From a virus: 35,411 bases of DNA. Of the stretch, positions 12 through 15,820 are shown piece after piece; within the stretch, counting starts at the first letter, position 1, and the number at the start of each line of letters is the position of its first letter. The translations under genes were made by a program, and so were the position numbers. The stretch spans positions 1-35,411 of the IMG/VR virus record IMGVR_UViG_3300038956_000205, one strand, 5' to 3'. The notes under the pieces were generated by a model. That model searched no databases. It saw only the letters and a list, made by a program, of their open reading frames with translations, and was not told the origin of the DNA.

Positions 12-422
12 GTGGCTGATGCTATCAGAATCGAGATTAAAGGCATTCCTCAGTTACAGGCCAAATTTAAGCAGATTGATAATGATATGCAGAAAGCACT
101 TTTGGAAGGTCTTGTCGAGGGTGGTGCTCTCGTTGTCAATACTGCAAAAGGACGAGTGGCATACAAAACAGGTAACCTGAAAAACAATATCAAAGAACAA
201 AAACAGTCGATGTCAGGAGGAAAAGCCCAGGTCGATGTCGGAGTTACTACGGTCCCTTATGCTGCCAGGATCGAGTTTGGATATACCGGACCTGACAAAC
301 TCGGAAGAAGATTTCACCAGGCAGCACAGCCTTACATGAGGAATTCTCTCGATGAAAACGGGAAAAAAATAGACAATATAATAGAATCAAAATTAAAAGC
401 AGTCATTGCGAGGTATAGATGA
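12..422 (+). CDS. HK97 gp10-like neck/tail-completion protein
   Basis: 136 aa, GTG start after GGTGA RBS; motifs 'TGNLKNNI', 'VPYAARIEFG', 'AAQPYMRNSLDE' typical of the gp10 family; lies upstream of the tail terminator. Confidence 0.8.
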   Translation: MADAIRIEIKGIPQLQAKFKQIDNDMQKALLEGLVEGGALVVNTAKGRVAYKTGNLKNNIKEQKQSMSGGKAQVDVGVTTVPYAARIEFGYTGPDKLGRRFHQAAQPYMRNSLDENGKKIDNIIESKLKAVIARYR

Positions 423-793
423 GCTTGATAGATGAGGCAGTCCGGGCGGTACTTCTCGCGAATTCTACAGTTTCCGGGCTTGTAGGTACTCGTATATATC
501 CGCTCCAGCTTCCCCTTTCATGCACATTTCCAGCAATCTCTTACTCTTTTCCTTCAGACAATTACACAAGAGTGGCGAGATCTGCCAGGCTTCAGGTGGA
601 CTGCTGGGCTGAAGATTTCACGCAATGCAAGAACCTGAAAAATGCAGTAGAAGCCGCTCTGGATGGATATTCGGGTACAGTTTCCGGTATCAATATCGAA
701 GGCATTTTTCCAATTTCTCCGTATGATCTCCCTCCGGATGAAACGGGGCTTTTTCACATTCCATATGATTTCAAAGTTATCTATAGACATTGA
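419..793 (+). CDS. tail terminator (DUF3168/gp11-like)
   Basis: 'VSGLVGTRIYPLQLP..TFPAISY', 'RLQVDCWA', 'AVEAALDGYSG'; ATGA overlap with the previous gene; position before the tail tube. Confidence 0.8.
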   Translation: MSLIDEAVRAVLLANSTVSGLVGTRIYPLQLPLSCTFPAISYSFPSDNYTRVARSARLQVDCWAEDFTQCKNLKNAVEAALDGYSGTVSGINIEGIFPISPYDLPPDETGLFHIPYDFKVIYRH

Positions 794-802
794 GGACAGA
801 AC

Positions 803-1609
803 ATGACGACATACCAGACAAGCGCGCAGCACAGCGAAACTATCCGCTTCGGTTCTGCTAAAATCGAAGTGGGAGAAACCGAGGAGAGTCTCGTAAACCT
901 GGGGCTCGCAACCGGGGTAAAATTCACCGAAGAATATACGCCTGTTGTCCTGAAACCCGACAATGCCCCTGAAATCGTTGTCGGTGTAAAAGACCACAGC
1001 GCAACCGTTGAATTCGAGATGTGGGAAGTCAACCTCACAAATCTCAACCTGATCCGAGGCGGGATTGATACCCTCAGCAGCGTTGAAGGTTCGGCAACTT
1101 CTGTAAGCGCAGAAACCCATACACTGACTGATACTAAATTTGTCAGGCTTGCCCACAAGAACGGCGACGGCTCCGAGGTAGCTTCGATTGAAGTCACTGA
1201 CTCATCGGACAATGCTGCAACAAGAAACACTGACTACGTGGTTGCAGTCGATGAAGAGGGCTATACCTGCATTGCCAGGGTTGCAACTTCAACCGTAATT
1301 GCAGACGGCGACAGCGTGAAAGTCAACTATACCTATACTCCAAATGCTGCAACAACCCTCTCAACAGGTGGTAAAAATACGGTATCCGCCAGAGTGGTCA
1401 GGCTCACGAACACCAATGCAGCTGGCAAGAAGTTCGAGATCACCGTTTACGCCGCGAAAAACCAGGGTGGCATCGAACTTGAACTCCCAGCAGATGACGG
1501 AGACGAGCCACTGAAGCCCACGATTACCTTGAAAGGTATATGTGATACTACAAGGACGGCAGGCGACCAGCTGTTCAAGATTGTAGATGAGCAAGGTGTA
1601 AGCGCATAA
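803..1609 (+). CDS. major tail tube protein, probably with an inserted beta domain
   Basis: 268 aa, acidic and Thr-rich; 'FGSAKIEVG', 'LGLATGVKFTEE', 'ATVEFEMWE'; lies between terminator and chaperone. Confidence 0.75.
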   Translation: MTTYQTSAQHSETIRFGSAKIEVGETEESLVNLGLATGVKFTEEYTPVVLKPDNAPEIVVGVKDHSATVEFEMWEVNLTNLNLIRGGIDTLSSVEGSATSVSAETHTLTDTKFVRLAHKNGDGSEVASIEVTDSSDNAATRNTDYVVAVDEEGYTCIARVATSTVIADGDSVKVNYTYTPNAATTLSTGGKNTVSARVVRLTNTNAAGKKFEITVYAAKNQGGIELELPADDGDEPLKPTITLKGICDTTRTAGDQLFKIVDEQGVSA

Positions 1610-1636
1610 TTTCCCAGGAAATAAAGGTGAAAGAAA

Positions 1637-2029
1637 ATGTCCGAAAATGGTCTGCTAAAAGATTTCGATATCCTTGCTCCTCCAAAAAGAATTGCCCGGA
1701 TCGGAGGGGAGGAAATAGATGTCACAATCGTTCCTGCGAGAGCTGCCCTGAAGTTCATCAGTTACACAAAAAAATACAGCGTTAAATCGCTTGAATCTAT
1801 GGATCAGGACAGCTTTGACCCTGGTATGATTGATGCTATTCTCGAAGTTGTTGAACTTGTATGCAAGCGGTCAAGCACGAAAATTACCCGCGACTGGCTT
1901 CTTGATAATGTAGACATCAAGGTCCTTATGGAGTTCGTGCAGTATGTCTTTGCAGGCATGAAAAATGTAAGCTCTGAAGAATCCTCCTCCAGAGAAGAAG
2001 GAAAAAACTCGGAATCTGGGACATCATAA
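1637..2029 (+). CDS. tail assembly chaperone (lambda gpG analogue)
   Basis: 130 aa between tail tube and tape measure; ends just after a slippery heptamer. Confidence 0.75.
   Translation: MSENGLLKDFDILAPPKRIARIGGEEIDVTIVPARAALKFISYTKKYSVKSLESMDQDSFDPGMIDAILEVVELVCKRSSTKITRDWLLDNVDIKVLMEFVQYVFAGMKNVSSEESSSREEGKNSESGTS
2002..2008 (+). other. -1 programmed frameshift site A AAA AAC
   Basis: In-frame codons GGA-AAA-AAC; the -1 frame is open from here through 2280 (KKLGIWDIITQLGQMYAW...). Confidence 0.75.
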
Positions 2030-2280
2030 CCCAGCTTGGACAGATGTACGCCTGGGCGACTCCGGAGAAGCTTCTCGATGAAATGAGTCTGGAACAGTTG
2101 ATCTTGTTCTATCGGTACGGATGGGAAGCAAGGAAAACTGACGCTCAGGTATATTGGGGTGTTCTCGGTCAAGCTCTCCAGGGCACGGAAGCCGGGGAAA
2201 AGGTACAGGGTCTTGAGAAGTTCAGAGAAGCGCATCCGGACGCAAAGATAGAAAACGGTGCTTGGATAGTGAGCAGGTGA
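2008..2280 (+). CDS. frameshift extension of the tail chaperone (gpT analogue)
   Basis: ORF-track 2044..2280 extends upstream without a stop to the slippery site. Confidence 0.7.
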   Translation, partial: LGIWDIITQLGQMYAWATPEKLLDEMSLEQLILFYRYGWEARKTDAQVYWGVLGQALQGTEAGEKVQGLEKFREAHPDAKIENGAWIVSR

Positions 2281-2284
2281 TTTT

Positions 2285-5071
2285 GTGGCAGTAGGTGAGC
2301 TTGTTGTATCAATTATAGGAGATATGCGAGAACTTTCCAAGACTTTCGCCAAGGTCCAGACTGAAATAGATGGTATCGGAAAAAAGTTTCAGAGTGTGGG
2401 AAGTACCCTTAAAAATACTGGAAAAACGATGTCTACCTACATCACTGCTCCTTTGGTAGGCATAGGCGCAGTTTCCCTTCATACTGCAGCTAATTTTGAC
2501 GACTCAATGCGGAAAGTCCAGGCTGTTTCGGGTGCAACTGGATCAGATTTTGAAAAACTTTCAAATCAGGCTAGAGAGCTTGGAGCGACCACGGCATTCT
2601 CGGCAACCGATGCAGCGGACGCAATGTATTACCTAGCACTCGCAGGCTGGGACGTCAACGAGATCATGGACGCCACGCCTGGGCTGCTTTCGTTGGCAAG
2701 CGCGGCAGGTATGGATCTCGGCGAAGCGGCAGATATCGTAAGTGACACAATGTCAGGTTTCACGATGACCGCTGACCAAGCTGGGAGAGCGGCTGACGTT
2801 TTTGCAACCATCACCTCAAGCGCAAACACTGATGTACACCAGCTAGGCGAGGCTATGAAATATGCTAGCTCGACGGCAAACGCTGCAGGTATGGACCTTG
2901 AGCAGACTGCAGCAGTGCTTGGAGTTCTTGCAGATTCCGGTATCAAGGGAAGCATGGCTGGAACTACATTTAATGCTATGCTTCGGGATATGAAAAAGAA
3001 TGCTGACGACGGCACAATTGCGATCGGGGAACACACGATAGCCCTATACAATCAGGACGGGACTATGCGTGACCTCGGCAGCATCATGGCAGAAGTAGAA
3101 AAAGCTACCGAGGGAATGACTGACAAACAAAGAGATGCTGCTCTAAGTGCGATTTTCCAGGAAGAGTCCATAAGGGGAGTTAACATCATGCTTGCCACGG
3201 GCTCAGAGCGGTATCAAGAACTTGAAGAGAAGTTAAGAGACTCGGAAGGCGCAGCAAAGGACATGGCTGACACCATGGAAGGAGGTGTTGGCGGGGCAAT
3301 TCGAGAGATGGAGTCCGCTCTTGAAGAACTCTCGATAGTTATTGGGAATATAATAGCCGTGGGATTCACTCCACTTATAAAAGATATCACTGAACTGGCA
3401 AACAGGTTCTCGGAACTCCCTGCTCCGGTTCAACAAACCGTTGTAGCTATAGGAGCGTTATTGGTGGTAATTGGATCGCTCCTCGTAATACTCGGCTTGG
3501 CTGCCTCTGCAATCGGTTCTATAGCTACATTATTCGGCGCAGGTGGTGCTCTCGCTACAGCAATGACGTTTATTTCTGGAACAGTGATCCCCGCGCTTGT
3601 GACCGCTTTAGGAGCTATCCTTTCACCTATCGGTCTTATTGCTATCGCAGTTGCAGCCCTGGCTCTTGCATGGAAAAACAACTGGTTCGGAATAAGAGAT
3701 ACTGCTAACGCTGTTTGGTCATGGCTGAAAACTTCCTTGAGCAATTTAGCAAACGATTTCAAAACGGCTTATACTAATATCATCAATCAGGGAAACACTT
3801 TAAAAACACTGTTTGGCAATGCCTGGAATTCAATTATAACCCTCTACAATTCATTAAAAACTCAACTGATTAATGCAGTAAATACACTTGCGACCAGCTT
3901 AGCAGCTTCATATAATAAGATAGTGGCAGGAGCTTCAAGCCTGCTTGATTCATGGAGAACTCACTGGACTAATTTCCAGGCAACTATCAGCGCAGCTGCA
4001 GGGACGATATCAAACTATCTCAGTACACTGTACTCAAACATTCAGGCCCGGTTTGAAAGCATCAAAACTGCAGCCTCTTCCATTCTTTCGGCTTGGAAAA
4101 GCCACTGGTCGAGTTTCCAGTCTGCGACCTCGGCAGCTGCTTCAACACTGTCAAGTGTACTTTCTTCCATGCACTCTTACGTTCAGAGCCGGTTCAACCA
4201 GATCAAGAGTGCAGCATCCTCTATTCTCTCAGCCTGGAAAACTCACTGGAACAATTTCAAGAGCGCAACAAGTTCAGCCGCGAGTTCAATTAACAGCGCG
4301 TTAGGCTCAATGCTGTCTTATGTTCAGAGCAGATTCAACTCCATAAAATCTGCAGCCTCTTCCATTCTCTCAGCCTGGAAAACACACTGGTCAAATTTTG
4401 TAAGTGCAACATCTTCAGCAGCGAGCAGTATAAGCAGCGCACTGTCATCCATGCTCTCAAATATGCAGAGTAGGTTCAACTCGATAAAATCAGCCGTGTT
4501 AAGCTTACTGAACGATTGGAAAACGCGCTGGAATAACATTGTAAGCTCCACCAAAACAGCAGGCTCACAGGTCGTAAATGCAGTAAAAGGTATAGCCTCT
4601 GATGTAAAAGCCCTGGTATCAAGTTTCTCAGCTGCAGGACGGGCTATCATGGACGCTCTGTATGACTCGATTACAAGCGGGTTCAGTAAGGCAATTAAAA
4701 AGGCCAAGGACTCCCTGAAGGAACTGAAATCTTACCTGCCTTCTTCACCGGCTGAAAAGGGTCCTTTCCGTGTTCTACCTAACTGGGATGCCGCTTTTTC
4801 AGATCCTATCGAAGCTTCAATCAAAAAAGTCAGGTCCATGTCTGGAGATCTGAGAAGCGCACTATCAGGACTCAGAAGCCCTATAGATTCTTCTCTATCA
4901 GCTGGATTCAGCAGGATCTCGAATATTACAAACTCTTATACCACGTACGGAGGGGACACCATAAACATTGGTCCCAATACCATAAGCAATGGTATTGACC
5001 TGCAGGCAATAATCGCAGAGATCGAAAGACAAACCGCAAACAAACGCAGGGCAAGGGGGCTTTACAAATGA
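2285..5071 (+). CDS. tape measure protein (TP901-like core)
   Basis: 928 aa; 'FDDSMRKVQAVSGATG', 'T.FSATDAADAMYYLALAGW', 'GIKGSMAGT'; central hydrophobic stretch; Trp-periodic Ala/Ser repeats. Confidence 0.95.
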   Translation: MAVGELVVSIIGDMRELSKTFAKVQTEIDGIGKKFQSVGSTLKNTGKTMSTYITAPLVGIGAVSLHTAANFDDSMRKVQAVSGATGSDFEKLSNQARELGATTAFSATDAADAMYYLALAGWDVNEIMDATPGLLSLASAAGMDLGEAADIVSDTMSGFTMTADQAGRAADVFATITSSANTDVHQLGEAMKYASSTANAAGMDLEQTAAVLGVLADSGIKGSMAGTTFNAMLRDMKKNADDGTIAIGEHTIALYNQDGTMRDLGSIMAEVEKATEGMTDKQRDAALSAIFQEESIRGVNIMLATGSERYQELEEKLRDSEGAAKDMADTMEGGVGGAIREMESALEELSIVIGNIIAVGFTPLIKDITELANRFSELPAPVQQTVVAIGALLVVIGSLLVILGLAASAIGSIATLFGAGGALATAMTFISGTVIPALVTALGAILSPIGLIAIAVAALALAWKNNWFGIRDTANAVWSWLKTSLSNLANDFKTAYTNIINQGNTLKTLFGNAWNSIITLYNSLKTQLINAVNTLATSLAASYNKIVAGASSLLDSWRTHWTNFQATISAAAGTISNYLSTLYSNIQARFESIKTAASSILSAWKSHWSSFQSATSAAASTLSSVLSSMHSYVQSRFNQIKSAASSILSAWKTHWNNFKSATSSAASSINSALGSMLSYVQSRFNSIKSAASSILSAWKTHWSNFVSATSSAASSISSALSSMLSNMQSRFNSIKSAVLSLLNDWKTRWNNIVSSTKTAGSQVVNAVKGIASDVKALVSSFSAAGRAIMDALYDSITSGFSKAIKKAKDSLKELKSYLPSSPAEKGPFRVLPNWDAAFSDPIEASIKKVRSMSGDLRSALSGLRSPIDSSLSAGFSRISNITNSYTTYGGDTINIGPNTISNGIDLQAIIAEIERQTANKRRARGLYK
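3929..4560 (+). repeat. 141-bp (47-aa) tandem repeats in the tape measure gene
   Basis: 'AASSILSAWK(S/T)HW' starts at 4070, 4211 and 4352; diverged copies lie one period on either side. Confidence 0.9.
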
Positions 5072-5415
5072 GCTTTTTATCAGTGACTTTCGCAGGTCTG
5101 CCAGTCTCAGCCTATCAAGACAGTGAAATCAATTACGTGATTGTGGCTAAAGAAGTGCAGCTCTACAAAGGAGACTACTTCGCTGCATTGAGTCAGAAGA
5201 CCCGGACGTTCCCCCGGTCATTTGATTGCTACACGGAAGATTATACCGAAATATCCAACCTTGCAAAGAAAATTGGCACTTTCGAAACTCTAACTATAGA
5301 GGGCGAAAACTTCTCAGATTGTTACATCTCGGACCTCGGAGCTATCAAGGAAGTTGTCCGGGGGTCCGGGAAATTCACATACTCAATAAAATTCTCGAAG
5401 GTCGATCAACATTGA
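5068..5415 (+). CDS. distal tail (Dit)-like protein
   Basis: 115 aa immediately after the tape measure gene with ATGA overlap; call is mainly positional. Confidence 0.5.
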   Translation: MSFLSVTFAGLPVSAYQDSEINYVIVAKEVQLYKGDYFAALSQKTRTFPRSFDCYTEDYTEISNLAKKIGTFETLTIEGENFSDCYISDLGAIKEVVRGSGKFTYSIKFSKVDQH

Positions 5416-5540
5416 CAGCAACAGAAACAGCGTCCCTTACGGTCATTGATATCAAATCTAGGGACCGCGAGGGCAACATAACCGAGCATATCAGGATACA
5501 TCCAGATGGAAAAGAGGAGGTCTTAGTATCGCGACGCTAA
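5412..5540 (+). CDS. small hypothetical virion protein (42 aa)
   Basis: TTG start overlapping the previous TGA; 'IDIKSRDREGNITEHIRIHPDG'. Confidence 0.5.
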   Translation: MTATETASLTVIDIKSRDREGNITEHIRIHPDGKEEVLVSRR

Positions 5541-5914
5541 CCGATAAGGCACTTGAAGCAGCTGCAAGAATGATTATAGGGGCGTCCCCTCCTGATCCTT
5601 TTGTCTATATGGCTACAGGGACGGGGGCAAGGGCCGAAAGTACCGCCGACACTGCATTAGAAAACGAAAACACGCAATACGGAGCACAGAGGGCGCAGGC
5701 GACCGTATCTTATGTCAGTCTTGGGATTTCACAGTGGTCTATTCTGTATGCCTTCACTGGACCAGTGACAATCAGGGAACTGGGGATATTCAACGCTCCC
5801 GTAGGCGGTGACATGTTCTTAAGGCATGTGCTCTCGGAAAATAAAACCTATTCCGACGGTGAGAGCGTCGAGATCACGATTACGAACACAAATACAAGGG
5901 TAACATCCATCTAA
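5528..5914 (+). CDS. tail/baseplate-associated virion protein; probable start ATC at 5528 (track start 5570)
   Basis: 'FVYMATGTG', 'DTALENE', 'TIRELGIFNAPVGGDMFLR' resemble phage tail-fibre N-terminal/baseplate proteins; GAGGAGGT RBS lies 6 nt before ATC-GCG-ACG. Confidence 0.6.
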   Translation: MATLTDKALEAAARMIIGASPPDPFVYMATGTGARAESTADTALENENTQYGAQRAQATVSYVSLGISQWSILYAFTGPVTIRELGIFNAPVGGDMFLRHVLSENKTYSDGESVEITITNTNTRVTSI

Positions 5915-5927
5915 GGAGCTCTGGAAA

Positions 5928-6524
5928 ATGGTCACGCTTAATATCGTTCCTGTCGACGATCCCCCTTATACCGTGGATGATGACGGTGCTATCCACATCG
6001 TTCTGAAGGATACTGCTAATACCTACGCAGACGGCAGCAACCCGCAAAAAGATTTTATTGTCATTCCGAAAGAGCAAACGATGCAGGGTCTAAACAAGGC
6101 TCTGATCCTGGCTAAGGAAGAGGCAATCGATTATTTCAGGAAGGAAGCTGAACGAATCGCTTATAGGCACTTGGTAATTACCGGAATGAACCATGTCACA
6201 ATTCCCGAAGTGATCTTCTCAGGAGACCCTGCCGGATACGAGAAGGTCGAGAAAATAGGAGTCAACAAAGACGAAATCATCATTGCAGATTCAATAGACG
6301 TTAGGATTATAAGTGCTGATATATGCGAAGTATCGGCTGCTGTTCTTGGAAAAGATCAGGACAGATCCCAAGCAAGAAATGTGAAAATCACATGGAATAG
6401 AAACGAGGGTCTTGATTCATGCCGGGACAAGCTAATCACGGCATATAATAACATAATTTCAACACCAGAAGACGCTATTAGATCACAGCTTATACAAGGA
6501 ATTGGTACAGTAGTACCGGAATGA
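5928..6524 (+). CDS. hypothetical virion protein
   Basis: 198 aa, GGAG RBS, within the tail operon. Confidence 0.6.
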   Translation: MVTLNIVPVDDPPYTVDDDGAIHIVLKDTANTYADGSNPQKDFIVIPKEQTMQGLNKALILAKEEAIDYFRKEAERIAYRHLVITGMNHVTIPEVIFSGDPAGYEKVEKIGVNKDEIIIADSIDVRIISADICEVSAAVLGKDQDRSQARNVKITWNRNEGLDSCRDKLITAYNNIISTPEDAIRSQLIQGIGTVVPE

Positions 6525-6534
6525 GGTGATAAAT

Positions 6535-6918
6535 ATGGCACTTTCGAAAACACCAACTCTTATACTTGACAGCGTAACCGTAGCAGCAAACAGCGCAAGT
6601 GCCGCAAGTACAGGCGTGGACCTGAACGATGCGGTTGACTTCGGCATTGGATACCAAATGACGTTTCACTCAAGCGCAACAAAGGGCGCAAGAATAGACC
6701 TCTATGCAGATCCTGCAGGAGCTTCACAAAGTTTCACCATCGGGACTTATGCCGATCCCTGCGACTCAGGGGACGTTCAAGTCGATGCGGGGCATCAGGT
6801 ACAGGGATTTATACAGATGCAGAGAGCCGCCCGTTATGTAAGGGCTAGAGTGGTAAACCTTGACACTGGGCAAGCAATAACAGGCTGTTCACTCTGGGCA
6901 ATTGTGCAGAAACCTTAA
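6535..6918 (+). CDS. hypothetical beta-rich virion protein
   Basis: GAGGTGA RBS before ATG 6535; Ala/Gly/Thr-rich. Confidence 0.6.
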   Translation: MALSKTPTLILDSVTVAANSASAASTGVDLNDAVDFGIGYQMTFHSSATKGARIDLYADPAGASQSFTIGTYADPCDSGDVQVDAGHQVQGFIQMQRAARYVRARVVNLDTGQAITGCSLWAIVQKP

Positions 6919-6939
6919 AACCTTCTCCAGGGTGGAAGC

Positions 6940-9900
6940 GTGAGTATAAACCCTTATCTCGCTTGGAAGTATAAGCTAGAAGTCCATGTCACTGGATTTT
7001 CGACGACTGGCGACTTTTTGGCTAACATTACCCTTCTCTATCGTCCAGGGATGCGGGCAGATTTCAGGGATATAAGAGCCTCTACCAAAACAGGGGCGAA
7101 AATTCCTCTGTTTATCGAGTCTGTAACGGAGTTCAACCAAGCTTTTATCTGGTTTAAGCTGCCTCAGAATACCGATTTCTTTTATCTGCACTACGGAAAC
7201 GGCGGGGCAACTTCCGAAAGCGACGGTAAGAAGGTTTTCACATTCTTTGACCACTTCGAGAAACTAGACTCGACGGTCTGGAGAACGATAGCAGGCTCGG
7301 CGACTGTCTCAGGGTCTATACTCACACTTCAAAACACATCACAAAGCAGCGTTTTAGAAAGCTACTCGACATTTCCCCCTAACACAGTGGTGGAAATCAA
7401 GGCACAGTACAACGCAGGCAACCGCACAATCTTTGGATACCGGAGTTACAGCTCACAAAAAGCAGCAGCTTGGCAGAGCTCGGCAGTAGGAGACGCGAAT
7501 AATCAGAGGTTCGCTCACAACGGATCTACTGGAAATTGGGACTCCGATGGCGTTAACAGGGCAGGGGGTTCCTATTATGTTTATGGAGTCGCCCACATTG
7601 TTACAGGCCCGCTTTACTACGTCAATTATACCTATCGCGGGACCATTACAGATTACATCCCCGGAAACGTCTCCCTGCCTGTTCAGTTCTATTGCTACTC
7701 AAATACAGGACCATTCAGGGTCGATTGGGTTAGGGTTAGGGATTTTGATGCGACCCTACCAACTCTCACGATAGGGCGGAAGTTCACAACCCAGCCTAAA
7801 GGATTTCCCTGGGATAATGCAATTACAGAGGCAAATACCAGGATGGGAATGTATCCATCCGTAAATATAAAGTCATTTTTAAAAAATATTAATACTAAAT
7901 TAGGAATGAAAGCGAGCGTAATGTTCAGACGGCCGCTTTTCTATAGCCCCCAGCTCAGAAGTCCTTATCCTCGCTGGAAATACAAAGGAGAAATAGAACT
8001 TGGAGAACAGGAGAGCCCGGCACGGGTCCGGCTCCCTATCCTCCCAGGCATGGCCCTCGACGGTCGAGACCTCAGATATACAGATCTCGACGATAAAGAG
8101 CTAAAATTTAACATCTTTGATACTGGGCTCGACTTCCTGGACTGCTGGGTCGAGATCCCTGCAGGGACCACCCGGATAAAATTTTATTACGGTAACGGAG
8201 TCGCTAAAACAAAGAGCGACCCCTCTATAGTCGGAGTCCCACAGACAGAGACGATCGTAACCGTAACCCCCCATATAGGCGGAGGGGGCGACGTCTGGCA
8301 GTTTCCAGGCTGGGAATATCAGCAGGACGTTAACCTCTCGGCGACTTCCTCGGCTACCGGAGGCGAGCAGATCCTCCTCTCTATTCCATACCGTCCAGGC
8401 ATGACAGCAGACGGCAGAGATTTAAGATTTTATGACCTGGCAGGGAATAAGCTTTCGTACTTCTTAGAAACCATTACATCCTCGACATTTTCGGTATGGG
8501 TTAAGCTTCCTGCAGATCATGATAAAATTATAATGGTTTTCGGCAACGGTCTTGCTACCTCTGAAAGTTCTGCATCGGATGTTTTCGACCTTTTTGATGA
8601 TTTCGAAGGGTCTACTCTTGGGTCTGAGTGGACTCTAGAAGGAGGGACGGCCTCAGTTACTAACTCTACTCTGGTATTAGGTAGTACGGAACGTAATAGT
8701 TTAATCCGGGGATCTTCTACTTTCGGACCTGGCCATATATTAGAAATGAGGATGTACCACCCGAACCAAAACCAGACCATTTGCGGGTTCTGGTCTGCAT
8801 CTAATCAGAGGGCCTGCTGGTTAGGGGCTTCGGGGACAAATTACAATGATCATACACATACTTATAACGGTTCTAACTCTACAATTATAGACGATGGAAT
8901 AAATAGAGGCGGTACAACATTCCACAAATACGGAATAACTTACGAGGCTGGTAGTGTTGGTTTTTTCGTGGATGACAATTACCGTCGAACCATGACCGTA
9001 ACAACCCCTTCTGGATCTATCCCGATTTCGTTTTACAGTACCGTAAATAAAGGTAATCTAGTCGTCGATTGGGTAAGGGTCCGCAAAATTACCAATATAA
9101 CCGGGACTCTCGGAAAGCTGACAAGGAAAACAGGGGCGATATATTACGAGACCACGACCGAAACAAGTATCGAAATTATACCAGAGATACAGCTCTCCCA
9201 CCGCCCACAGTGGAAGACTCCGCAAATTTATTATGAATACATAAAGTTACCCTCGTCTTTTATGGGGATGGCCCCAGGAGAGCCGACATTTAAGGAGCGT
9301 CGAGAGCTTGGCGATTATGCTATTGTATCCTGCGAGGTTAACAGGTCCATTAATGACGCTTATATGCAGCTCTCGACCGAGTTTCAAAACCTTACTGTCC
9401 CACCAGAAGGCAGCACGATAAAACATAATGCATATGACTCGCATGGCGACCCTCACTTATTATTCCATGGAAAAATAGTAACTAATTCGCCGACTCACGG
9501 ACATTATTCCCAAACCGTGAAAATGCACGCGGCGGATGACAGTATAAACCTAGTAACTCAGCCAGTCCCCTGGGTATATCAGGTAATTGATACAGCAGTG
9601 GATACAGTCCCTAACTGGCTTGTAAGGATTTTAGAACCTGAAAAGTCTGGGGTGTATCCTAAAACGCTTATAGATACTAACAAAGAGCCTAAACAGTTTG
9701 TTTTCGATCCTAAAACCAAAAAACTAGAGGCAATAAAAGAGCTTGCAAAATACGCAGGATGCCTGTATCAGACGAAACTCATAACAAGAGAAATTGATGG
9801 GCATATAATCACAAGACCAGAATTTTATTTTGTGCCTCCAGAACGGATTGACGAGCCCGTTAACGGCTTTGACCTTCCTGCCCCCTTAATCCTTGATGCT

Positions 9901-10656
9901 GATACTAGTAAGCTTATTAGCGATCCCCAGGTCACAAACGAAAGCGAGGAAAAATATAACTCTGTCATAGTTTATGGAGTCCTTAGCGAGAACGGGGAAA
10001 GTGTAGTCGCTCAAGCATTTTCTTATGAGGTCTATACAGGAGAACAAAAACCTAAAGTATATATTATTGAAGATAACGCGATCACGGAAAAAGGCAGCAC
10101 AGCCGAGCGTGAAGCCATAAAATGGCTCCTGTACTTCCTGGCTAAACGGGTCAAGGTCAGCATGTCTTTTGTGGACCGGTTCGACCTGGAGCTGTATCAG
10201 AGAATCCGTTTTGGACCGGGATTTTCAAACAAGCTGCAAGAGCTTACCAGCTCCACCCAGGTTCAGCAAGTCGCAGCCTGCGACCCCAGGGACGCCGAGA
10301 ACTCCACCCACTTAATAGACGTCTCAGGAGTCCCCCGCCCGGCATGGCTGCGGATTTCAGACATAAAATATCATAGTGAGTATAAACTAGAAACGGTAAC
10401 TGTCACTGCAATCACCGATAATATATATTCTATAGTTGACCCAATAGTCCCTGAGCCGTATAACGAGTACCTGAGCCCAGGATACTATAAACCGGTAATA
10501 GATGACCTTGTGGATACAACCCAGTCGATAGTAGAGGATAAGTTAGAAAAACAATTAACCCCTGAGAGCTGCACGGTCCTGAGCATAAACGAGGAAAATA
10601 ATACCGCAGTAGTGCAAACCGCAAGCGGAAAAATAGTAACGGTGTCCCTAGCATGA
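6940..10656 (+). CDS. large tail-tip protein: three DUF2341-like/lectin modules fused to a C-terminal hub (Tal-like) region
   Basis: Three repeats of 'W.Y...(P)GM..D.RD(I/L)R...W..(L/I)P...(Y)GNG'; two followed by 'FD.F(E)' lectin-like domains; C-terminal ~450 aa resembles a hub protein. Confidence 0.75.
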   Translation: MSINPYLAWKYKLEVHVTGFSTTGDFLANITLLYRPGMRADFRDIRASTKTGAKIPLFIESVTEFNQAFIWFKLPQNTDFFYLHYGNGGATSESDGKKVFTFFDHFEKLDSTVWRTIAGSATVSGSILTLQNTSQSSVLESYSTFPPNTVVEIKAQYNAGNRTIFGYRSYSSQKAAAWQSSAVGDANNQRFAHNGSTGNWDSDGVNRAGGSYYVYGVAHIVTGPLYYVNYTYRGTITDYIPGNVSLPVQFYCYSNTGPFRVDWVRVRDFDATLPTLTIGRKFTTQPKGFPWDNAITEANTRMGMYPSVNIKSFLKNINTKLGMKASVMFRRPLFYSPQLRSPYPRWKYKGEIELGEQESPARVRLPILPGMALDGRDLRYTDLDDKELKFNIFDTGLDFLDCWVEIPAGTTRIKFYYGNGVAKTKSDPSIVGVPQTETIVTVTPHIGGGGDVWQFPGWEYQQDVNLSATSSATGGEQILLSIPYRPGMTADGRDLRFYDLAGNKLSYFLETITSSTFSVWVKLPADHDKIIMVFGNGLATSESSASDVFDLFDDFEGSTLGSEWTLEGGTASVTNSTLVLGSTERNSLIRGSSTFGPGHILEMRMYHPNQNQTICGFWSASNQRACWLGASGTNYNDHTHTYNGSNSTIIDDGINRGGTTFHKYGITYEAGSVGFFVDDNYRRTMTVTTPSGSIPISFYSTVNKGNLVVDWVRVRKITNITGTLGKLTRKTGAIYYETTTETSIEIIPEIQLSHRPQWKTPQIYYEYIKLPSSFMGMAPGEPTFKERRELGDYAIVSCEVNRSINDAYMQLSTEFQNLTVPPEGSTIKHNAYDSHGDPHLLFHGKIVTNSPTHGHYSQTVKMHAADDSINLVTQPVPWVYQVIDTAVDTVPNWLVRILEPEKSGVYPKTLIDTNKEPKQFVFDPKTKKLEAIKELAKYAGCLYQTKLITREIDGHIITRPEFYFVPPERIDEPVNGFDLPAPLILDADTSKLISDPQVTNESEEKYNSVIVYGVLSENGESVVAQAFSYEVYTGEQKPKVYIIEDNAITEKGSTAEREAIKWLLYFLAKRVKVSMSFVDRFDLELYQRIRFGPGFSNKLQELTSSTQVQQVAACDPRDAENSTHLIDVSGVPRPAWLRISDIKYHSEYKLETVTVTAITDNIYSIVDPIVPEPYNEYLSPGYYKPVIDDLVDTTQSIVEDKLEKQLTPESCTVLSINEENNTAVVQTASGKIVTVSLA

Positions 10657-12140
10657 CTACGGTTTACGTTTCGAGCCTGGGAACTGATGAATACACCGTA
10701 GACGGAACAGCCGACGACGTCCAGATTAACCAGGCTCTTTTATACGCTCATAATAACGGGACAGATACCAGCCCGGTGACGGTTTATCTTCGAGGGCCTT
10801 TTACTTATGAGCTGGCCTCCTGGTTGTTAATTGGGAATAATACAATCCTTACAGGCGACCCAACCGCCAAGCTCAGGCTGAAAAATAACGCAGGCTGGGC
10901 GAACATCTACACAACGGAAGACCCAGGCACAGAGCCGCTTATTAAACAGAGGGTAAACCCTATCCGAAACGTCGAGGTCCATAACTTCGAAATTGACGCA
11001 AACAAGGACAACCAGCCCGGATACGTCCACGGAAAACTAAATTACATTATAATGTTTTTCACGAATGCCACAAATATTTCCATGCATGATATGTATATTC
11101 ACGATGGGCAAAGCGACGGCATGAGGATGGCAAATAGCAACAATCTATACTTTTTTAATAACAGAGTAGAGCGTATGGGTCACGATGGCTGTTTCTTTCT
11201 AAGGTCTCAGAATTTCTTGATTTTCGGGAATGTAACTAAAATAAGAACCAACAGCGCACACCGAGTTTATAATACAGGGCATGGCAAGATTTTTAATAAC
11301 TATATGGAGCCTTACGCTTTAAATTCCCTGGCTGGAAACCCTGGCATACAAATCGAGCACAGCGATGATACGTATGATATGTCAGGAATAGAAGTGTATG
11401 GGAACGAGATAGTTAACGCCTGGGGAGAAGGGATGTGGATAATCGAGTATGGTACAGGCTCAAATCAGAGTAATAAAGGGCTTCATGTTCATGATAATAT
11501 TATCCGTGGTGCTGGCAGGATTACCACAATTAATTATAATGCAGGTATTGCCGTCGGGGGATGGAATGGTGCAACCTTCGAGAGAAACACTATAGAAGAT
11601 TGCTATAACGCCGGATTTCTCGTTTATACGGCCGCAGGAGCTCAAACTACCCTATATGTAAAGGATAACGTAATCACAGGCACAAAAATTACCCTTAATA
11701 GCTCGAAACCTACCTGGACGGGTTACGGGATGGTATGCCCGAATGGATATAATACGACGATCCAGGCAACTGGAAACGGTCTTGATGGCAATGCTAGCGG
11801 GGATTACTATGGGAATATCATATATACTGATGCTATCCGGGTATCCTGCCGTATGGGGATGTATACAGCAGCTCCTACCCTGATAGATCAGCAGATCCCT
11901 GAAGAGGAAGCGGGTATAAAACCGGGTGATTGGGGCCTGGTCCTGCCTTCTGAGGGAGGGAAGTACAAATATATTTTATATCCTTTCAAAATGCCCAAGG
12001 TCGGCGAGCGGTGCTTAATTTATCCTGCACACTCAAGAAAGTATTACCTGCTTAAGCTGGCTCAGGGAGCCCAGCCAGGCGATAAGATCATCGCTATAAC
12101 GGACAGGAAGGGCCAGTCCTGGGGAGTAGTAGGAAATTGA
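10653..12140 (+). CDS. right-handed beta-helix (pectin-lyase fold) protein, disaggregatase-like; probable tail spike/depolymerase
   Basis: 'VQINQAL', 'GPFTY', 'IGNNTILTGD', 'GHDG', 'RTNSAHRVYN', 'PGIQIE' and Asn/Gly/Ile repeats; ATGA-coupled to the tail-tip gene. Confidence 0.8.
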   Translation: MTTVYVSSLGTDEYTVDGTADDVQINQALLYAHNNGTDTSPVTVYLRGPFTYELASWLLIGNNTILTGDPTAKLRLKNNAGWANIYTTEDPGTEPLIKQRVNPIRNVEVHNFEIDANKDNQPGYVHGKLNYIIMFFTNATNISMHDMYIHDGQSDGMRMANSNNLYFFNNRVERMGHDGCFFLRSQNFLIFGNVTKIRTNSAHRVYNTGHGKIFNNYMEPYALNSLAGNPGIQIEHSDDTYDMSGIEVYGNEIVNAWGEGMWIIEYGTGSNQSNKGLHVHDNIIRGAGRITTINYNAGIAVGGWNGATFERNTIEDCYNAGFLVYTAAGAQTTLYVKDNVITGTKITLNSSKPTWTGYGMVCPNGYNTTIQATGNGLDGNASGDYYGNIIYTDAIRVSCRMGMYTAAPTLIDQQIPEEEAGIKPGDWGLVLPSEGGKYKYILYPFKMPKVGERCLIYPAHSRKYYLLKLAQGAQPGDKIIAITDRKGQSWGVVGN

Positions 12141-12190
12141 ACTACCCCTTTTCTGGTAGGATTAGAGGCACTTTTCGCCGTGCTCATCAA

Positions 12191-12459
12191 ACGATCTCAG
12201 GCTTCCAGGTATAAACGCCTTAGACTGGTCGAGAAATGCGCTCTAAAAGCCTTAGAATAAACCGAGTTTGCCGGTAACGTTTTATTATGTGATCCAGAGA
12301 ACACCAGGAAATCCGTGATTTTATGCTCCACAACTTCCAGGAAAAGTCCCTCTAATTTTCAAACCAGGCTTAAGGACGTCGAGATCTAGGCACGATCTCA
12401 GGCTTCCAGGTATAAACGCCTTAGACTGGTCGAGAAATGCGCTCTAAAAGCCTTAGAAT
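12191..12459. repeat. perfect 68-bp direct repeat, two copies (12191-12258 and 12392-12459)
   Basis: ACGATCTCAGGCTTCCAGG...AAAAGCCTTAGAAT is identical in both copies, 201 bp apart. Confidence 0.97.
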
Positions 12460-12599
12460 GAACCTCTGCTACCGTCGTTGAGATTGATGTCGTTTCGGTT
12501 TATTATAGAAATCCACATCAACTTATATTTATCTCAGCACGAAATTAATTCAATTTTCTTTTTTATGTGCTCACCTGGATAAAACAATGTGATCCCACT

Positions 12600-12734
12600 A
12601 TGGTAAGAACCCTACAAAAAATGAGTAACGGCTGCATAAATTTCCTAAAAATGCTCGGAACGCTTACGGGCATTGGCTAACTTATTGTCGGTATTGCAGC
12701 GGCATTTACTGAAGCTCCGAAGGTTGGACCGTGA
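12600..12734 (+). pseudogene. small membrane-protein ORF interrupted by TAA (12678-12680)
   Basis: MVRTLQKMSNGCINFLKMLGTLTGIG*LIVGIAAAFTEAPKVGP*; a hydrophobic segment spans the stop. Confidence 0.35.
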
Positions 12735-12797
12735 GAAGATTCCAGTTTATTTCTTTTTTTTTCAAAAACGTTGACACTTATTTAATTGAGGTATAAC

Positions 12798-14168
12798 ATG
12801 ACTAAGATAGTTACAGTTCCTTTGTCTGTTGATGATTCTACAAAATTACAGAAGTTAATTAATTCGACTGGAAACACCCCTGCTAAATACGAATTTTCCC
12901 CAGATCACGAAATCGAAATAAACTCACTGCTTCGGGTTTTCAACTTCACAGAATGGGATGGGTAGGGCTGTAAGTTTGCACTCATGGAAAATGCGCCCCT
13001 TTCTCCATTTGCGTCTAGCGTTCCCTTGATTGCTCCAAAATATCCAACGGCAGCAGAAGGTCTTTGCTTCCACGATATAATCTTTGATGGCCGCCGGGAT
13101 ACCCAAAAATACGCAAAAGATGAGTGTAAATCGAGAGGGAAGAATGAGTGGGGGCAGGGATATCACAACACTTTCATGCTCGGTAGCTTTAATAATGTCA
13201 AATTTTCCAACGCGGTAAACTGTGAGTTTTACAATTTGGGATTTTACAACAGCCTGGGGGATGGAATAAGAATAGAGGGTGGAACTGATATTAGAGTCCA
13301 TGACATTATCGGGAAGCGTGGAGGCCATGATATAGTATGCCTTGCCGGAGTCAATGGCGGCGAAGTATCAAACGTCAACGCTAAGCTTGCCGTTAATGCA
13401 GGAGTAAGAACTCGATCAAGCAAGAATATTAAGATTCATGACTGCATCCTGGACGGAGCAACAGGGATAGCGTACAGTCCGGGTATTCAGATTCAATCGA
13501 CTGCCACAAACTGGATAACTGACAATATCGAGATCTACAATAATACAATTTCCGGGACTTACGGGCCGGGTATTCAGATCGTAGGTACAGTCCCAAATAA
13601 CGGACTTGTGTCCGTGCACAATAATCTTATCGTTGGCTGTGGAGCTATGCCTGCAGCTTCTAAGCTTCCAGGAGTCGGAGGTATTGCTTTTGATGGTATC
13701 TCGGTGGATATCCAGAACAATACGATTGATTCATGTTATGGGTACGGGCTTCTTGCTGGAAAGTATACACTTGCTTCGACCTATGCTGCAACTGCCCTGA
13801 TACGAAGGAATATTATTACGAATACTAAAAAAGCCCTGTATCCTGGCGTCGGTTCTGGCTCAGGAATCGCGGATCTGACAGCAGGCAGGTACAAAATTAT
13901 CGCAGAGGAGAACTGCCTCTGGGGCAACCTTACTGACCTATATAAAGTCATTCAAACGGACGGGCTGTATGTAGATCCTCAGTTTTCCGGCTTCGGAGAT
14001 TACCATCTGCAGCTTTCCAGTCCCTGCAGGTTCTCAGGCTATCAACTAGGTTGCTACGAAGACGCCGAGCAAGTGCCCGTGGAACTGCTCATTTCTCTCA
14101 AGGAAACCCAAATTCCCGAACTTATCAAACTACTCCCTAAAAAATACACAATATGGAGGAGACTATGA
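12798..14168 (+). CDS. second beta-helix polysaccharide-degrading enzyme candidate (paralogue of 10653..12140) with in-frame TAG at 12963-12965
   Basis: GAGGT RBS and ATG 12798 are in frame with track ORF 12984..14168; only one stop (EWDG*GCKF); 'GHD', 'NAGVR', 'SPGIQIQS', 'IEIYNN' parallel the first protein. Confidence 0.75.
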
Positions 14169-14692
14169 CAACTGTCATTGATTTGACATACACCTACACC
14201 ACAAAATACACACAGTACGACGAAAAAATCAGAACTCACGTACAGAAAACTGTCACGATCAATGGGCAGCCAGGAAAGAAAATCAGAATTGACAGTCTTA
14301 AGTGCACTCTCGCAGCTGAAAAGGAGGGTATTGTGGCCTCTGTACTGGTCACTGCGGAGGTAGCAGGTATCGACTATAGACTCGCCGAGTGGACAACCTC
14401 AAAAACTGCAGCACAAAATAAGAGCGCGTCACCTGCTTTTCTTGTGGATGAGGGAAAGGGTGTCGTCCTGCGGTGGCACTTAAAAACGTCCAATGCCGCG
14501 TACAAGGCAATTATGAAAGTTCCTGAATATTCGTACTCTTTCGTTGATGTCGAGAAGCCTGAGCCTGAACCCGAGAAGCCGGATCCGCAGTTTCTTGTCA
14601 CTGTCTCGTGTTCGTCAGAAACAGAGGCGAATGAACTCATTAAAACACTTAAAACTAGTACACAAGATTATACTATCTTTAAGCAGGCTTGA
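14165..14692 (+). CDS. hypothetical protein with PEPE linker and small C-terminal domain
   Basis: ATGA overlap with the upstream stop; 'KPEPEPEKPDP' linker. Confidence 0.65.
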   Translation: MTTVIDLTYTYTTKYTQYDEKIRTHVQKTVTINGQPGKKIRIDSLKCTLAAEKEGIVASVLVTAEVAGIDYRLAEWTTSKTAAQNKSASPAFLVDEGKGVVLRWHLKTSNAAYKAIMKVPEYSYSFVDVEKPEPEPEKPDPQFLVTVSCSSETEANELIKTLKTSTQDYTIFKQA

Positions 14693-14696
14693 AAAA

Positions 14697-14834
14697 ATGC
14701 ATACTGAACCAAAACGCTGCTATTGTTGCTCAGATTTCGAACCGGATGAATTCGACGATTTGATGTTTGGGAAATGTAGAAAAACAGGAAAAACGGTAGC
14801 ATGTAATCATATTTGTACACTTGGAGAAAACTAA
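14697..14834 (+). CDS. 45-aa Cys-rich (metal-binding) protein
   Basis: MHTEPKRCYCCSDF...GKCRK...ACNHIC. Confidence 0.55.
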   Translation: MHTEPKRCYCCSDFEPDEFDDLMFGKCRKTGKTVACNHICTLGEN

Positions 14835-14835
14835 C

Positions 14836-15147
14836 ATGGTAGACATGGTTGTATTATCTCAAATTGCAACCGGAGCATTTGCACTGCTCGCTGTTGCTAG
14901 TACTAGAATAGCTGTCAAATACAAACAGGAGATCGAGCAGGTCACAAAACTCAAAGATCTTGCCCTATATTCACTTGAAAAAATTCAAGTATTGGCAACC
15001 GAAGTCAAGAAATCACGGGACGCAACTAGCCCGGGTGGAAGTACGGTCACGCCAGAAGAAATGAAAAATTTCTATTATCTCACTACCAGTATTCTTGAAT
15101 CCGAGGAAGTAAAAGAGATCCTTTCCGAATATGGGGTGAGTAAGTGA
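14836..15147 (+). CDS. holin-like membrane protein (one N-terminal TM helix, coiled cytoplasmic tail)
   Basis: 'VVLSQIATGAFALLAVAST' hydrophobic; 'SPGGSTVTPEE'; located at the end of the late operon. Confidence 0.5.
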   Translation: MVDMVVLSQIATGAFALLAVASTRIAVKYKQEIEQVTKLKDLALYSLEKIQVLATEVKKSRDATSPGGSTVTPEEMKNFYYLTTSILESEEVKEILSEYGVSK

Positions 15148-15206
15148 AATTCCTAACAGAATTTTGGAATAAACTAAGGGACTTGTTCAACCGGTCGATT
15201 TCATGA
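15144..15206 (+). CDS. 20-aa amphipathic peptide MKFLTEFWNKLRDLFNRSIS
   Basis: GTGA overlap with the upstream stop, ATGA overlap with the downstream start, GGGGTGAG RBS. Confidence 0.6.
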   Translation: MKFLTEFWNKLRDLFNRSIS

Positions 15207-15598
15207 CTGCAGTAACAGTAGACATTGACAGTATAGGAGGTGCACTTGCAGGGATAATTTCGATCCTCGTCACACTCTTTGCATATCTCAAGTCGAGGGG
15301 ATATATCGACATCTGGAAAACGAAACTGTTTGATATCCCATCTCCTATTGCAGAAGAAGTGAAGCACCAGGATAATGATGTTGTCCTGATGAAACTACAG
15401 ATACCTGATGACGTACTCTGTGTCCTGCACTCCTTTGAGGTCAATGACGCGGGACAGGTTGTTTTGAAGGGGCATGGGCGAGTGAATACTCTGCTGAAGT
15501 TGAACCGCCCTCTCACAGATTCTGAGAAGGACGAAATTATAAAAATTGTTAGAAAAGTGTTAGTGAATTGTAAAAAAGAGAATTGTAAAAAAGAGTGA
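15203..15598 (+). CDS. membrane-anchored protein, possible lysis component
   Basis: N-terminal TM 'GGALAGIISILVTLFAYL'. Confidence 0.55.
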   Translation: MTAVTVDIDSIGGALAGIISILVTLFAYLKSRGYIDIWKTKLFDIPSPIAEEVKHQDNDVVLMKLQIPDDVLCVLHSFEVNDAGQVVLKGHGRVNTLLKLNRPLTDSEKDEIIKIVRKVLVNCKKENCKKE

Positions 15599-15625
15599 TG
15601 TTATTTTATTTATTTTTCTTTTTTC
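15599..15625. terminator. T-rich terminator between convergent units
   Basis: TTATTTTATTTATTTTTCTTTTTT after the last + strand late gene. Confidence 0.5.
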
Positions 15626-15676
15626 GGACACTGTGAGAGGCGTTTTAAAAGTCTTGATCAAGTTGAATGTATTGGT

Positions 15677-15820
15677 TTAAGCCTCCATAACTGCCAGTAC
15701 TTCTTCCATCACTGGGAACACACTTACCCTGTTGCAGGCAAATCTCATCTCGTCCTGTAGTGCCCTGGCTTTTTCGGGTGGAAGTTCGATAGTGGTCTTT
15801 TTTGAAAGGACTAGTTTCAT
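15677..15820 (-). CDS. 47-aa hypothetical protein
   Basis: MKLVLSKKTTIELPPEKARALQDEMRF...; GAGGTG RBS. Confidence 0.5.
   Translation of the reverse strand: MKLVLSKKTTIELPPEKARALQDEMRFACNRVSVFPVMEEVLAVMEA

Follow-up and report, generated by a model that had tools for sequence, protein, structure and literature searches.

A disaggregatase-related enzyme cassette of tailed Methanosarcinaceae viruses as a candidate exit module

Background

How do tailed viruses leave archaeal cells that are enclosed by an S-layer only? The question is raised by a cassette of six open reading frames (ORFs) in the IMG/VR viral contig IMGVR_UViG_3300038956_000205, a 35.4-kb sequence (35,411 nt, estimated completeness ~50%) which was taken in its whole length and is called the window here. 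Coordinates are window positions, the cassette lies on the plus strand, and L0xx and G135 denote comparison loci. The cassette offers concrete and conserved candidates for such an exit, namely two families of transmembrane (TM) proteins, a micropeptide and a two-part enzyme. Our tentative reading, to which we would give slightly less than an even chance, is that it constitutes an autonomous late exit module of tailed Methanosarcinaceae viruses working in two steps, a breach of the membrane followed by clearing of the matrix around the host.

The lytic repertoire described for archaeal viruses comprises the Pei enzymes, PVAP and holins predicted from structure (PMC10791045, PMC12596118), and according to a 2024 review the holin genes of archaeal viruses remain elusive (PMC10791045). 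In the literature searched we found no paper tying disaggregatase-like enzymes to viruses and no description of such a cassette, which agrees with the impression of an initial annotation of this DNA, made from the sequence alone, that the exit strategy is uncharacterised. What appears to be new is a cassette of holin-lysin type whose protein families and presumed target are both new.

Organization of the cassette

The six ORFs are tightly coupled, preceded by a conserved leader and followed by an oligo-T tract:

12728..12797, plus strand: AT/T-rich conserved leader with a TATA-like stretch and the ribosome-binding site (RBS) GAGGT; ~70 nt, nearly identical in L005
12798..14168, plus strand: leaderless disaggregatase-related beta-helix enzyme, 456 codons (Pfam, AlphaFold2 model)
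14165..14692, plus strand: jelly-roll protein p179 (AlphaFold2 model, structure comparison)
14697..14834, plus strand: Cys-rich miniprotein, 45 aa (sequence, relatives)
14836..15147, plus strand, with an alternative start TTG at 14821: tm108, TM protein 1 (hydropathy, family)
15144..15206, plus strand: micro-ORF of 20 codons (conserved position, residue pattern, hydrophobic moment)
15203..15598, plus strand: tm131, TM protein 2 (hydropathy, family)
15599..15630, plus strand: oligo-T tract after the tm131 stop at 15598

The RBS of the enzyme gene lies 7-11 nt before its ATG. The likely start of p179 is ATG 14165, in an ATGA overlap with the enzyme stop and behind the RBS GGAGGAG; the Cys-rich ORF begins 4 nt past the p179 stop, and the ATG of tm108 at 14836 stands 1 nt past the Cys-rich stop, behind GGAGA. 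The micro-ORF starts with GTG at 15144 in a GTGA overlap with tm108, and its 3' end lies in an ATGA overlap with tm131. Further upstream of the shared leader the DNA of L005 is unrelated to that of the window, and AT-rich, TATA-like DNA precedes the enzyme start in all relatives; the leader is a putative promoter of the cassette's own. The oligo-T tract is likely to be the archaeal terminator of the unit, and the next gene after it is a convergent minus-strand ORF (15677..15820).

All ORFs described in the initial annotation were found at these places on the plus strand, with a gap after the tail genes, while an in-frame TAG in the enzyme gene had been missed. Its descriptions of a beta-helix enzyme without obvious signal peptide, a Cys-rich miniprotein, two N-terminal-TM proteins and a 20-aa amphipathic peptide were borne out by AlphaFold2, Kyte-Doolittle hydropathy, sequence and hydrophobic moment. 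Its 'linker protein' is p179, which the AlphaFold2 model and structure matches identify instead as a jelly-roll protein, probably of carbohydrate- or receptor-binding type.

A disaggregatase-related enzyme

Pfam analysis revealed the family Disaggr_assoc (PF08480) at residues 180-351 of the 394-aa part of the enzyme, with 87.2 bits (cut-off 22.6) and an E value of 1.8e-24, and so confirmed the relationship to disaggregatase that had been suspected. The enzyme also matches PF13229 (Beta_helix) with 50 bits, and the Disaggr_assoc domain is precomputed on ~100 of its homologues; PF06848 (Disaggr_repeat/DNRLRE/CBM96) gave no match in the enzyme or p179 at E <=0.1. The AlphaFold2 model, built with 44 homologues, is a right-handed parallel beta-helix (predicted local distance difference test score, pLDDT, 94) with a cap helix at residues 14-24. 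Since the beta-helix starts at residue 3, the model has no N-terminal virion-attachment domain, and by hydropathy, the only measure applied here, there is no N-terminal hydrophobic stretch or signal peptide (best 19-residue Kyte-Doolittle mean 1.11). The C-terminus consists of an acidic linker followed by a module of ~35 aa with a strand-helix-strand pattern, modelled with low confidence.

The best-matching solved folds are the A-modules of the mannuronan epimerases AlgE4 and AlgE6, an alginate epimerase/lyase, GH28 polygalacturonases, the Vibrio biofilm lyase RbmB and tailspikes; all are polysaccharide-active, mostly on uronate polymers. The Foldseek matches to tailspikes have E values of 4e-5 to 2e-4 and include HK620, CBA120 and Klebsiella/Acinetobacter depolymerases. 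All family-invariant residues are kept in the enzyme, and the conserved polar residues D155, H177, D178 and R204 stand on successive rungs. At the sequence level the enzyme is 75% identical to that of L005 and ~30% identical to chromosomal Methanosarcina proteins; tblastn against 50,697 phage and 72,556 plasmid records found no match. Glucuronic acid is a constituent of methanochondroitin, which the disaggregatase of M. mazei cleaves (PMC12369344). These data support assignment of the enzyme to a disaggregatase-related family whose fold is nearest to enzymes of uronic-acid polysaccharides, and a glycanase or lyase is predicted.

The in-frame TAG of the enzyme gene

The frame 12798..14168 is interrupted by TAG at 12963-12965 (codon 56), which divides it into 55 + 400 codons. 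In relatives this codon is CAG, AAG or AAT (Q/K/N), the nearest relative having CAG. The TAG allele is kept in L003, L004 and L023, contigs of three RNA libraries and one DNA run cover the site with no variant, and the same allele is implied by a cluster with 88 members whose called length, 394 aa, is that of the frame behind the TAG. The lineage of L006 and L025 carries a different in-frame TAG at codon 208 of the orthologous enzyme (L006 2655-2660), and TAA or TGA interruptions were seen in no enzyme orthologue. As a stop, TAG is used by 1 of 38 ORFs in the window. PylS scored above the cut-off in 3 of 4 related genomes of the host family, and in-frame UAG is known from other Methanosarcinaceae elements (bioRxiv 10.64898/2026.10.06.756670).

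Polymorphisms pooled over the TAG lineage comprise 8 nonsynonymous and 17 synonymous changes, giving a dN/dS ratio of ~0.14 (P 2e-6 under neutrality). Because of this purifying selection within the TAG lineage we judge the TAG-bearing gene to be functional. An internal ATG at 12984 has no RBS, and since the beta-helix starts at residue 3, a product begun there would lack the cap and the first rung; codon 56 itself falls within the strand of residues 51-62. The full-length enzyme most likely arises by read-through of UAG as pyrrolysine, a requirement that would keep the enzyme dose low. With its UAG fixed in frame and selection maintained, this viral gene is a candidate for natural pyrrolysine read-through outside methylamine metabolism.

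The gene might instead be a decaying pseudogene made by a CAG-to-TAG nonsense mutation, with the cassette functionless in the window virus. A stop only 55 codons into the frame, CAG in the nearest relative and an internal ATG without RBS are what this would predict; but the TAG allele spans several samples and years, the dN/dS ratio is low, every family-invariant residue persists, a second lineage has another in-frame TAG and never TAA or TGA, and PylS is present in the host family. We regard decay as very improbable and rejected it on the selection evidence.

The jelly-roll protein p179, a probable binding partner, and the Cys-rich miniprotein

Protein p179 (175-179 aa) was modelled by AlphaFold2 with pLDDT 88; its jelly-roll domain is joined by a Pro/Glu linker to a C-terminal module of ~35 aa. 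VIA-align gave Z scores of 9-10 with the BcsB CBD and CBM36 (these two at 9.5-10.1), and likewise with phage fibre tips, Pgp3 and the lectin PLTL. The list of structural matches is flat, running over carbohydrate-binding modules (CBMs), TNF-like lectins, viral capsids and fibre tips (lambda gpJ, cyanophage fibres), and no CBM family of Pfam matched p179. L005 carries a Disaggr_repeat/CBM96 gene (E 8e-63) at the position of p179, directly downstream of the enzyme, and a carbohydrate-binding role of p179 is therefore supported. We consider p179 a probable non-catalytic binding partner, for carbohydrate or receptor.

The C-terminal modules of the enzyme and p179 align with each other (hhalign probability 82%, E 1e-5), and none was found in other proteins of the window or the fetched loci beyond these two families. 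Together the two proteins look like an enzyme split into catalytic and binding polypeptides, which may pair. A complex prediction for p179 and the 394-aa enzyme part behind the TAG (with alignment) scored 0.14 against a mark of 0.32, a value that speaks neither for nor against pairing. In L017 (1918-6735) a 1605-aa tail protein encoded after the tape measure has a Disaggr_assoc beta-helix fused to a p179-like jelly-roll, so that the enzyme and p179, free-standing elsewhere, have their counterpart here in one polypeptide.

The Cys-rich miniprotein has the pattern CxC/CxxC ... LFG.C ... C and is probably a zinc ribbon. Relatives occur in L008 and L012, and several loci have none; in G135 the Cys-rich sequence forms the N-terminal part of a larger protein, 140 aa long, that also has a CarboxypepD_reg-like domain. 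Searches of PHROGs, NCBIfam and PADLOC gave no match for p179, the Cys-rich miniprotein, tm108 or tm131, and a Protein Atlas feature search with the two TM proteins yielded nothing of use. A word-based homologue search yielded 3 clusters each for tm131 and p179, and profile searches and locus scans gave more.

Membrane proteins and micropeptide

Each of tm108 (103-108 aa) and tm131 (131 aa) has a single N-terminal hydrophobic segment (Kyte-Doolittle mean 1.9-2.3; 2.06 in tm108 and 2.30 in tm131). The tm108 family, seen in the window, L006, L008, L011, L015, L016, L017 and many metagenome loci, has an acidic N flank and a basic C flank in 7 members, followed by a helical, charged C-terminal part. 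Only 12 representatives of tm131 are found in 1.84 billion proteins. This protein is built of a short acidic N-terminus, a Gly/Ala/Ser-rich TM segment in which small-xxx-small motifs are frequent, a basic flank and a conserved soluble domain of ~85 aa; among 18 family members the N flank has a charge of 0 to -4, and the C flank one of +2 to +5 in 16. Read by the positive-inside rule, these flank charges predict an N-out/C-in orientation for both proteins. In their setting both resemble holins, being small TM proteins beside the enzyme in the same coupled unit, and this linkage is conserved.

The soluble domain of tm131 (residues ~65-112) repeatedly matched the EF-hand pair at the C-terminus of centrins, though weakly (E 0.007-0.1), and a D-x-x-G-x-I-D-like loop is present in many family members. 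A calcium-responsive trigger acting through tm131 is conceivable; it is unsupported, the EF-hand match being a lead only.

Micro-ORFs of 20-25 codons with a common residue pattern stand at the same junction in L006, L010, L015 and L017. The hydrophobic moment of the encoded peptides exceeds that of 98.9-99.9% of shuffles in 4 of 5, and their net charge is +1 to +4. From these properties we conclude that the micro-ORF is no accident and that it encodes a predicted cationic amphipathic helix.

Conservation and mobility of the module

Profile hidden Markov models of four families (enzyme, p179, tm108, tm131) were run over 24 metagenome loci and over viral and genomic loci. The gene set recurs in the same order in more than 20 independent viral or metagenomic loci, with the TM families and the micropeptide persistently linked to the enzyme; the synteny on which the initial annotation had set store was thus found. 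Its expectation that the TM proteins are conserved at this site holds for most loci; from two near-identical viruses (L003 and L004) tm131 and the micropeptide are deleted. The order enzyme-p179-tm108-tm131 was seen, where upstream DNA sufficed, in L022-26, L028, L030, L036, L006, L010 and L015/19, and the order enzyme-tm131-tm108-second beta-helix in L008, L034, L035 and L038. The tm131 gene is nearly always downstream of the enzyme. Some loci depart from these orders: L029 has an IS605 insertion, in L013 the enzyme gene joins tm131 directly, and L014 shows an unrelated context.

The surroundings of the block differ: in the window, L005 and L017 its neighbours are tail genes, L008 has a DUF1699 gene next to terminase there, and L007, L010, L011 and L015 have minus-strand modules. 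Identity between G135 and the window is 78-81% for the fibre and tail beta-helix proteins, yet only 50% for the cassette enzyme; the accessory genes differ, and in G135 the cassette sits past 2.9 kb of minus-strand genes that follow the tail genes. Because the same block occurs in different genomic neighbourhoods, we regard it as an autonomous, exchangeable module and not as part of the tail operon; across the loci compared, linkage within the module is stronger than its linkage to tail genes. Every cassette with enough context lies on a virus-like contig (terminase, tail genes or shared backbone). Contigs of six RNA libraries from different studies cover the cassette; DNA carry-over is possible, and we do not take them as evidence of expression.

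Several variants were observed. In L008 (5057-9898), as in L034, L035 and L038, the genes enzyme-tm131-tm108 are followed by those for a 387-aa beta-helix protein and a papain-family (Peptidase_C1) protein, and this type ends with a beta-helix protein of more than 850 aa that has an N-terminal hydrophobic stretch; the papain-family protease could target the S-layer. The 101-kb contig L010 has its backbone helicase in common with the window; beside its cassette, at 4546-7076 on the minus strand, lie a Y1 transposase gene and genes of a type IV CRISPR-Cas system (Csf1, RAMP and a weak Csf3 match). Upstream of p179 in L029, where the enzyme gene would be expected, there is instead an IS605-type TnpB gene (876-1976, minus strand). 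As TnpB genes also flank the cassette in L011, L016 and L017, the borders of the module are insertion hot spots.

Host and genomic setting

A scan of genome contigs with the enzyme profile found one locus only, in a Methanosarcinaceae metagenome-assembled genome (MAG). Relatives of the large terminase occur in 10 of 177 Methanosarcinaceae genomes (best identity 78%); the closest deposited terminase, 42% identical, is from a Methanomicrobiales-associated virus. The enzyme's match in the MAG, the terminase relatives and the presence of a DUF1699 gene in the window place the host in the family Methanosarcinaceae. The assignment stops short of genus, so that of the Methanosarcina host named in the initial annotation the family stands and the genus lies beyond it. 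Near-identical cassette DNA is present in runs from digesters, biogas reactors, landfill and compost, from 16 studies.

A Pfam scan revealed a siphovirus-type tail module at 12..12140, with HK97-gp10-like and tail-completion proteins, a 928-aa tape measure, a 1238-aa DUF2341 fibre and a second Disaggr_assoc protein:

10653..12140, plus strand: paralogous Disaggr_assoc beta-helix protein (bh495), 495 aa (Pfam PF08480, E 3.8e-15)

The bh495 gene overlaps (ATGA) the stop of the tail-fibre gene (6940..10656), and its product, 26-30% identical to the cassette enzyme, is likely to be a virion-borne depolymerase. A non-coding gap (12141..12797) separates the tail genes from the cassette. It contains a 73-nt direct repeat (12191-12263 and 12392-12464, 99% identical, 201 bp apart); as the 201-bp unit is missing in L004 and in one DNA-run contig (joint 12178>12380), the repeat is a recent insertion/duplication polymorphism.

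To the right of the cassette lies convergent minus-strand DNA with PAPS_reduct/DUF3440 and SNF2 genes, with a Dam methylase gene further on and then the small and large terminase genes. The minus-strand operon at 16320-20719, which encodes the PAPS_reduct/DUF3440 protein, a ParB-like 180-aa protein (without Pfam match) and the SNF2 helicase, is probably a DNA-modification or anti-defence module. The DUF1699 gene, of a family typical of Methanosarcina, is at 21200-21499, 5.6 kb downstream of the cassette; in L006 (1529-1978) and L008 (2015-2485) it stands directly upstream of the cassette.

Proposed function and alternatives

In the two-step reading, tm108, tm131 and the cationic micropeptide would accumulate in the cytoplasmic membrane and breach it in the manner of holins, and a cell with an S-layer only would not outlive the breach. 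The breach would then, to judge from homology, free the leaderless cytoplasmic enzyme and p179, which would cut the methanochondroitin-like matrix around host aggregates and let the progeny escape. Entry would be served by the virion's own depolymerase, the tail-coupled paralogue at 10653..12140.

We favour this exit module because a leaderless polysaccharide enzyme and small TM proteins are joined in one coupled unit, because this unit is autonomous, with its own leader, an oligo-T end and conserved TM linkage, and because the order of its parts is lysin-like (catalytic domain, linker and C-terminal module, plus a separate binding subunit). The separate Disaggr_assoc paralogue, coupled to the tail, can serve entry; the variant cassette adds a papain-family peptidase and further beta-helix proteins; and the small-xxx-small motifs, the conserved charge asymmetry of the TM proteins and the conserved cationic amphipathic micropeptide point the same way. 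So do the nearness of the fold to enzymes of uronate polymers, including a biofilm-dispersal lyase, given the glucuronic acid of methanochondroitin, the functional state of the enzyme gene despite its TAG, and the finding that no lysis-suggestive Pfam family matched the other long ORFs of the window that were scanned.

Several observations weigh against it. Neither tm108 nor tm131 matches a holin family in Pfam, PHROGs, NCBIfam or PADLOC, and their conserved C-terminal domains of 75-100 residues are unlike the short charged tails of classical holins. In L003 (3580-3590) and L004 (8337-8347), which come from other metagenomes, the micropeptide and the TM part of tm131 are lost through a 331-bp deletion (window 15145-15475) between short similar sequences indicating microhomology (GGGGTGAGT.AGTGAA / GGGCGAGTGAATAC), and RNA-library contigs of runs X15 and X16 diverge at 15173; hence either these copies are defective or the virus can do without tm131 and the micropeptide. 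The enzyme would also be no strict lysin, as methanochondroitin is an outer matrix and not an osmotic barrier. Further, the enzyme-p179 pair of L017 lies directly after tailspike genes with the TM pair 4 kb away, p179-like and enzyme-like domains occur within large tail proteins, and an enzyme homologue of 46% identity stands alone, without TM genes, in a Methanosarcinaceae chromosome. At that chromosomal locus (L009 9775-11514, from a Methanosarcinaceae MAG) the homologue is followed by three multi-pass membrane proteins, by eye FxsA- and LrgB/LrgA-like.

A more elaborate form of the exit module would couple its two parts. The shared C-terminal module would be a docking tag read by the cytoplasmic domains of the TM proteins, the matrix-degrading complex would be staged at the membrane and freed when the TM proteins and the micropeptide open it, and pyrrolysine read-through would tie the enzyme dose to the methylamine/pyrrolysine physiology of the host. 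Taken together, we think this combination improbable.

In the window, L005 and L017 the enzyme and p179 come after genes for a tail fibre or tailspike, a position that suggests another function, that of virion parts. The pair, docked via the shared C-terminal module, would then be an exchangeable second depolymerase of the tail together with its receptor-binding subunit and would take the virus through the matrix on entry; the TM proteins would serve separately in holin-like lysis or superinfection exclusion. The fusion of p179-like and Disaggr_assoc domains in the 1605-aa tail protein of L017, a p179-like domain in a 775-aa protein of L005, and the likeness of p179 to fibre tips (lambda gpJ, cyanophage) and of the enzyme to tailspikes fit this view. 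So does the fast exchange of the enzyme, 50% identical in G135 where the tail genes are ~80%, which is typical of host-recognition modules. Yet the unit has its own leader, in most relatives it lies at a distance from the tail genes, no anchoring domain precedes the beta-helix, a tail-coupled paralogue is already present, and the TM genes are linked more tightly to the pair than the tail genes are. We hold a virion function to be rather unlikely.

The stand-alone chromosomal homologue could also be read as a sign that the cassette is a non-lytic, host-modifying module, in which the enzyme is exported through the holin-like proteins and disperses host aggregates, spreading host and element alike; it would then be a lysogenic-conversion or accessory trait and not a lysis device. 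Disaggregatase-related genes on Methanosarcina plasmids have been proposed to switch between aggregated and dispersed growth (bioRxiv 10.64898/2026.10.06.756670), variants without tm131 circulate, and the RNA-library contigs, DNA carry-over aside, would suit such a role. Against it, cassettes with enough context are all on virus-like contigs, the plasmid records yielded no match to the enzyme, and a site beside structural genes fits late expression. This alternative seems to us decidedly unlikely, and the two-step exit module is retained as the preferred reading.

Significance of the proposed exit module

The candidate set makes the question of exit testable, and Methanosarcina is a genetically tractable genus. 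It drives methane production in digesters and landfills, which are among the sample types that yield cassette DNA. If the proposed function is true, the viral enzyme would dissolve Methanosarcina aggregates; it could then serve as a reagent and help to explain how viruses control methanogenesis.

Comparison with known systems

The closest relatives of the enzyme are the disaggregatase of M. mazei and related proteins (PF08480, PF06848). They share with it a significant PF08480 match on a right-handed beta-helix and the same host family, and L005 has a PF06848/CBM96 gene immediately downstream of its enzyme. The cassette enzyme differs in being viral, in its size of ~455 aa, in lacking a signal peptide and Disaggr_repeat, and in having its own C-terminal module. 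The M. mazei disaggregatase is extracellular, whereas the cassette enzyme is leaderless and its activity is predicted from homology. With tailspikes and capsule depolymerases the enzyme has in common the right-handed beta-helix of the pectate-lyase superfamily; unlike them it has no N-terminal particle-binding domain, belongs to a putative transcription unit of its own, and finds its best matches in soluble AlgE-type epimerases and lyases.

PeiW, PeiP and PeiR are the only characterised envelope-degrading exit enzymes of tailed viruses that infect methanogens (PMC10791045). They are leaderless like the cassette enzyme, and their passage through the membrane is unexplained (PMC10791045); they are of an unrelated fold and act as proteases on pseudomurein peptides, whereas Methanosarcina has no pseudomurein. 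The cassette resembles holin-endolysin cassettes in that a leaderless degrading enzyme stands beside small membrane proteins at the end of the late genes. It differs from them in its archaeal host and in its predicted target, a polysaccharide matrix outside the S-layer and not a murein sacculus, and its TM proteins, which match no holin family, have large conserved cytoplasmic domains.

Disruptin (gp28 of phage PhiKT) is a cationic amphipathic peptide of a lysis cassette. The micropeptide is likewise predicted to be a short cationic amphipathic helix inside a putative lysis cassette, but it has 20-25 residues versus ~56, and its host has no outer membrane to disrupt; we know of no sequence relation between the two. 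PVAP (STIV C92 / SIRV2 P98) is the pyramid-forming egress protein of crenarchaeal viruses. By description tm108 and tm131 are like it: they are archaeal-virus proteins of ~100 aa whose single TM helix is N-terminal and whose helical C-terminal part is predicted to face the cytoplasm; unlike PVAP, the cassette combines two different TM proteins with a micropeptide and an enzyme, and belongs to a tailed virus. Among two-component or multimeric lysins, PlyC is composed of catalytic and binding subunits, and Lys170 and CTP1L have extra binding-domain subunits. Like these, the cassette puts catalysis and predicted binding on separate polypeptides, and its two proteins share a C-terminal module.

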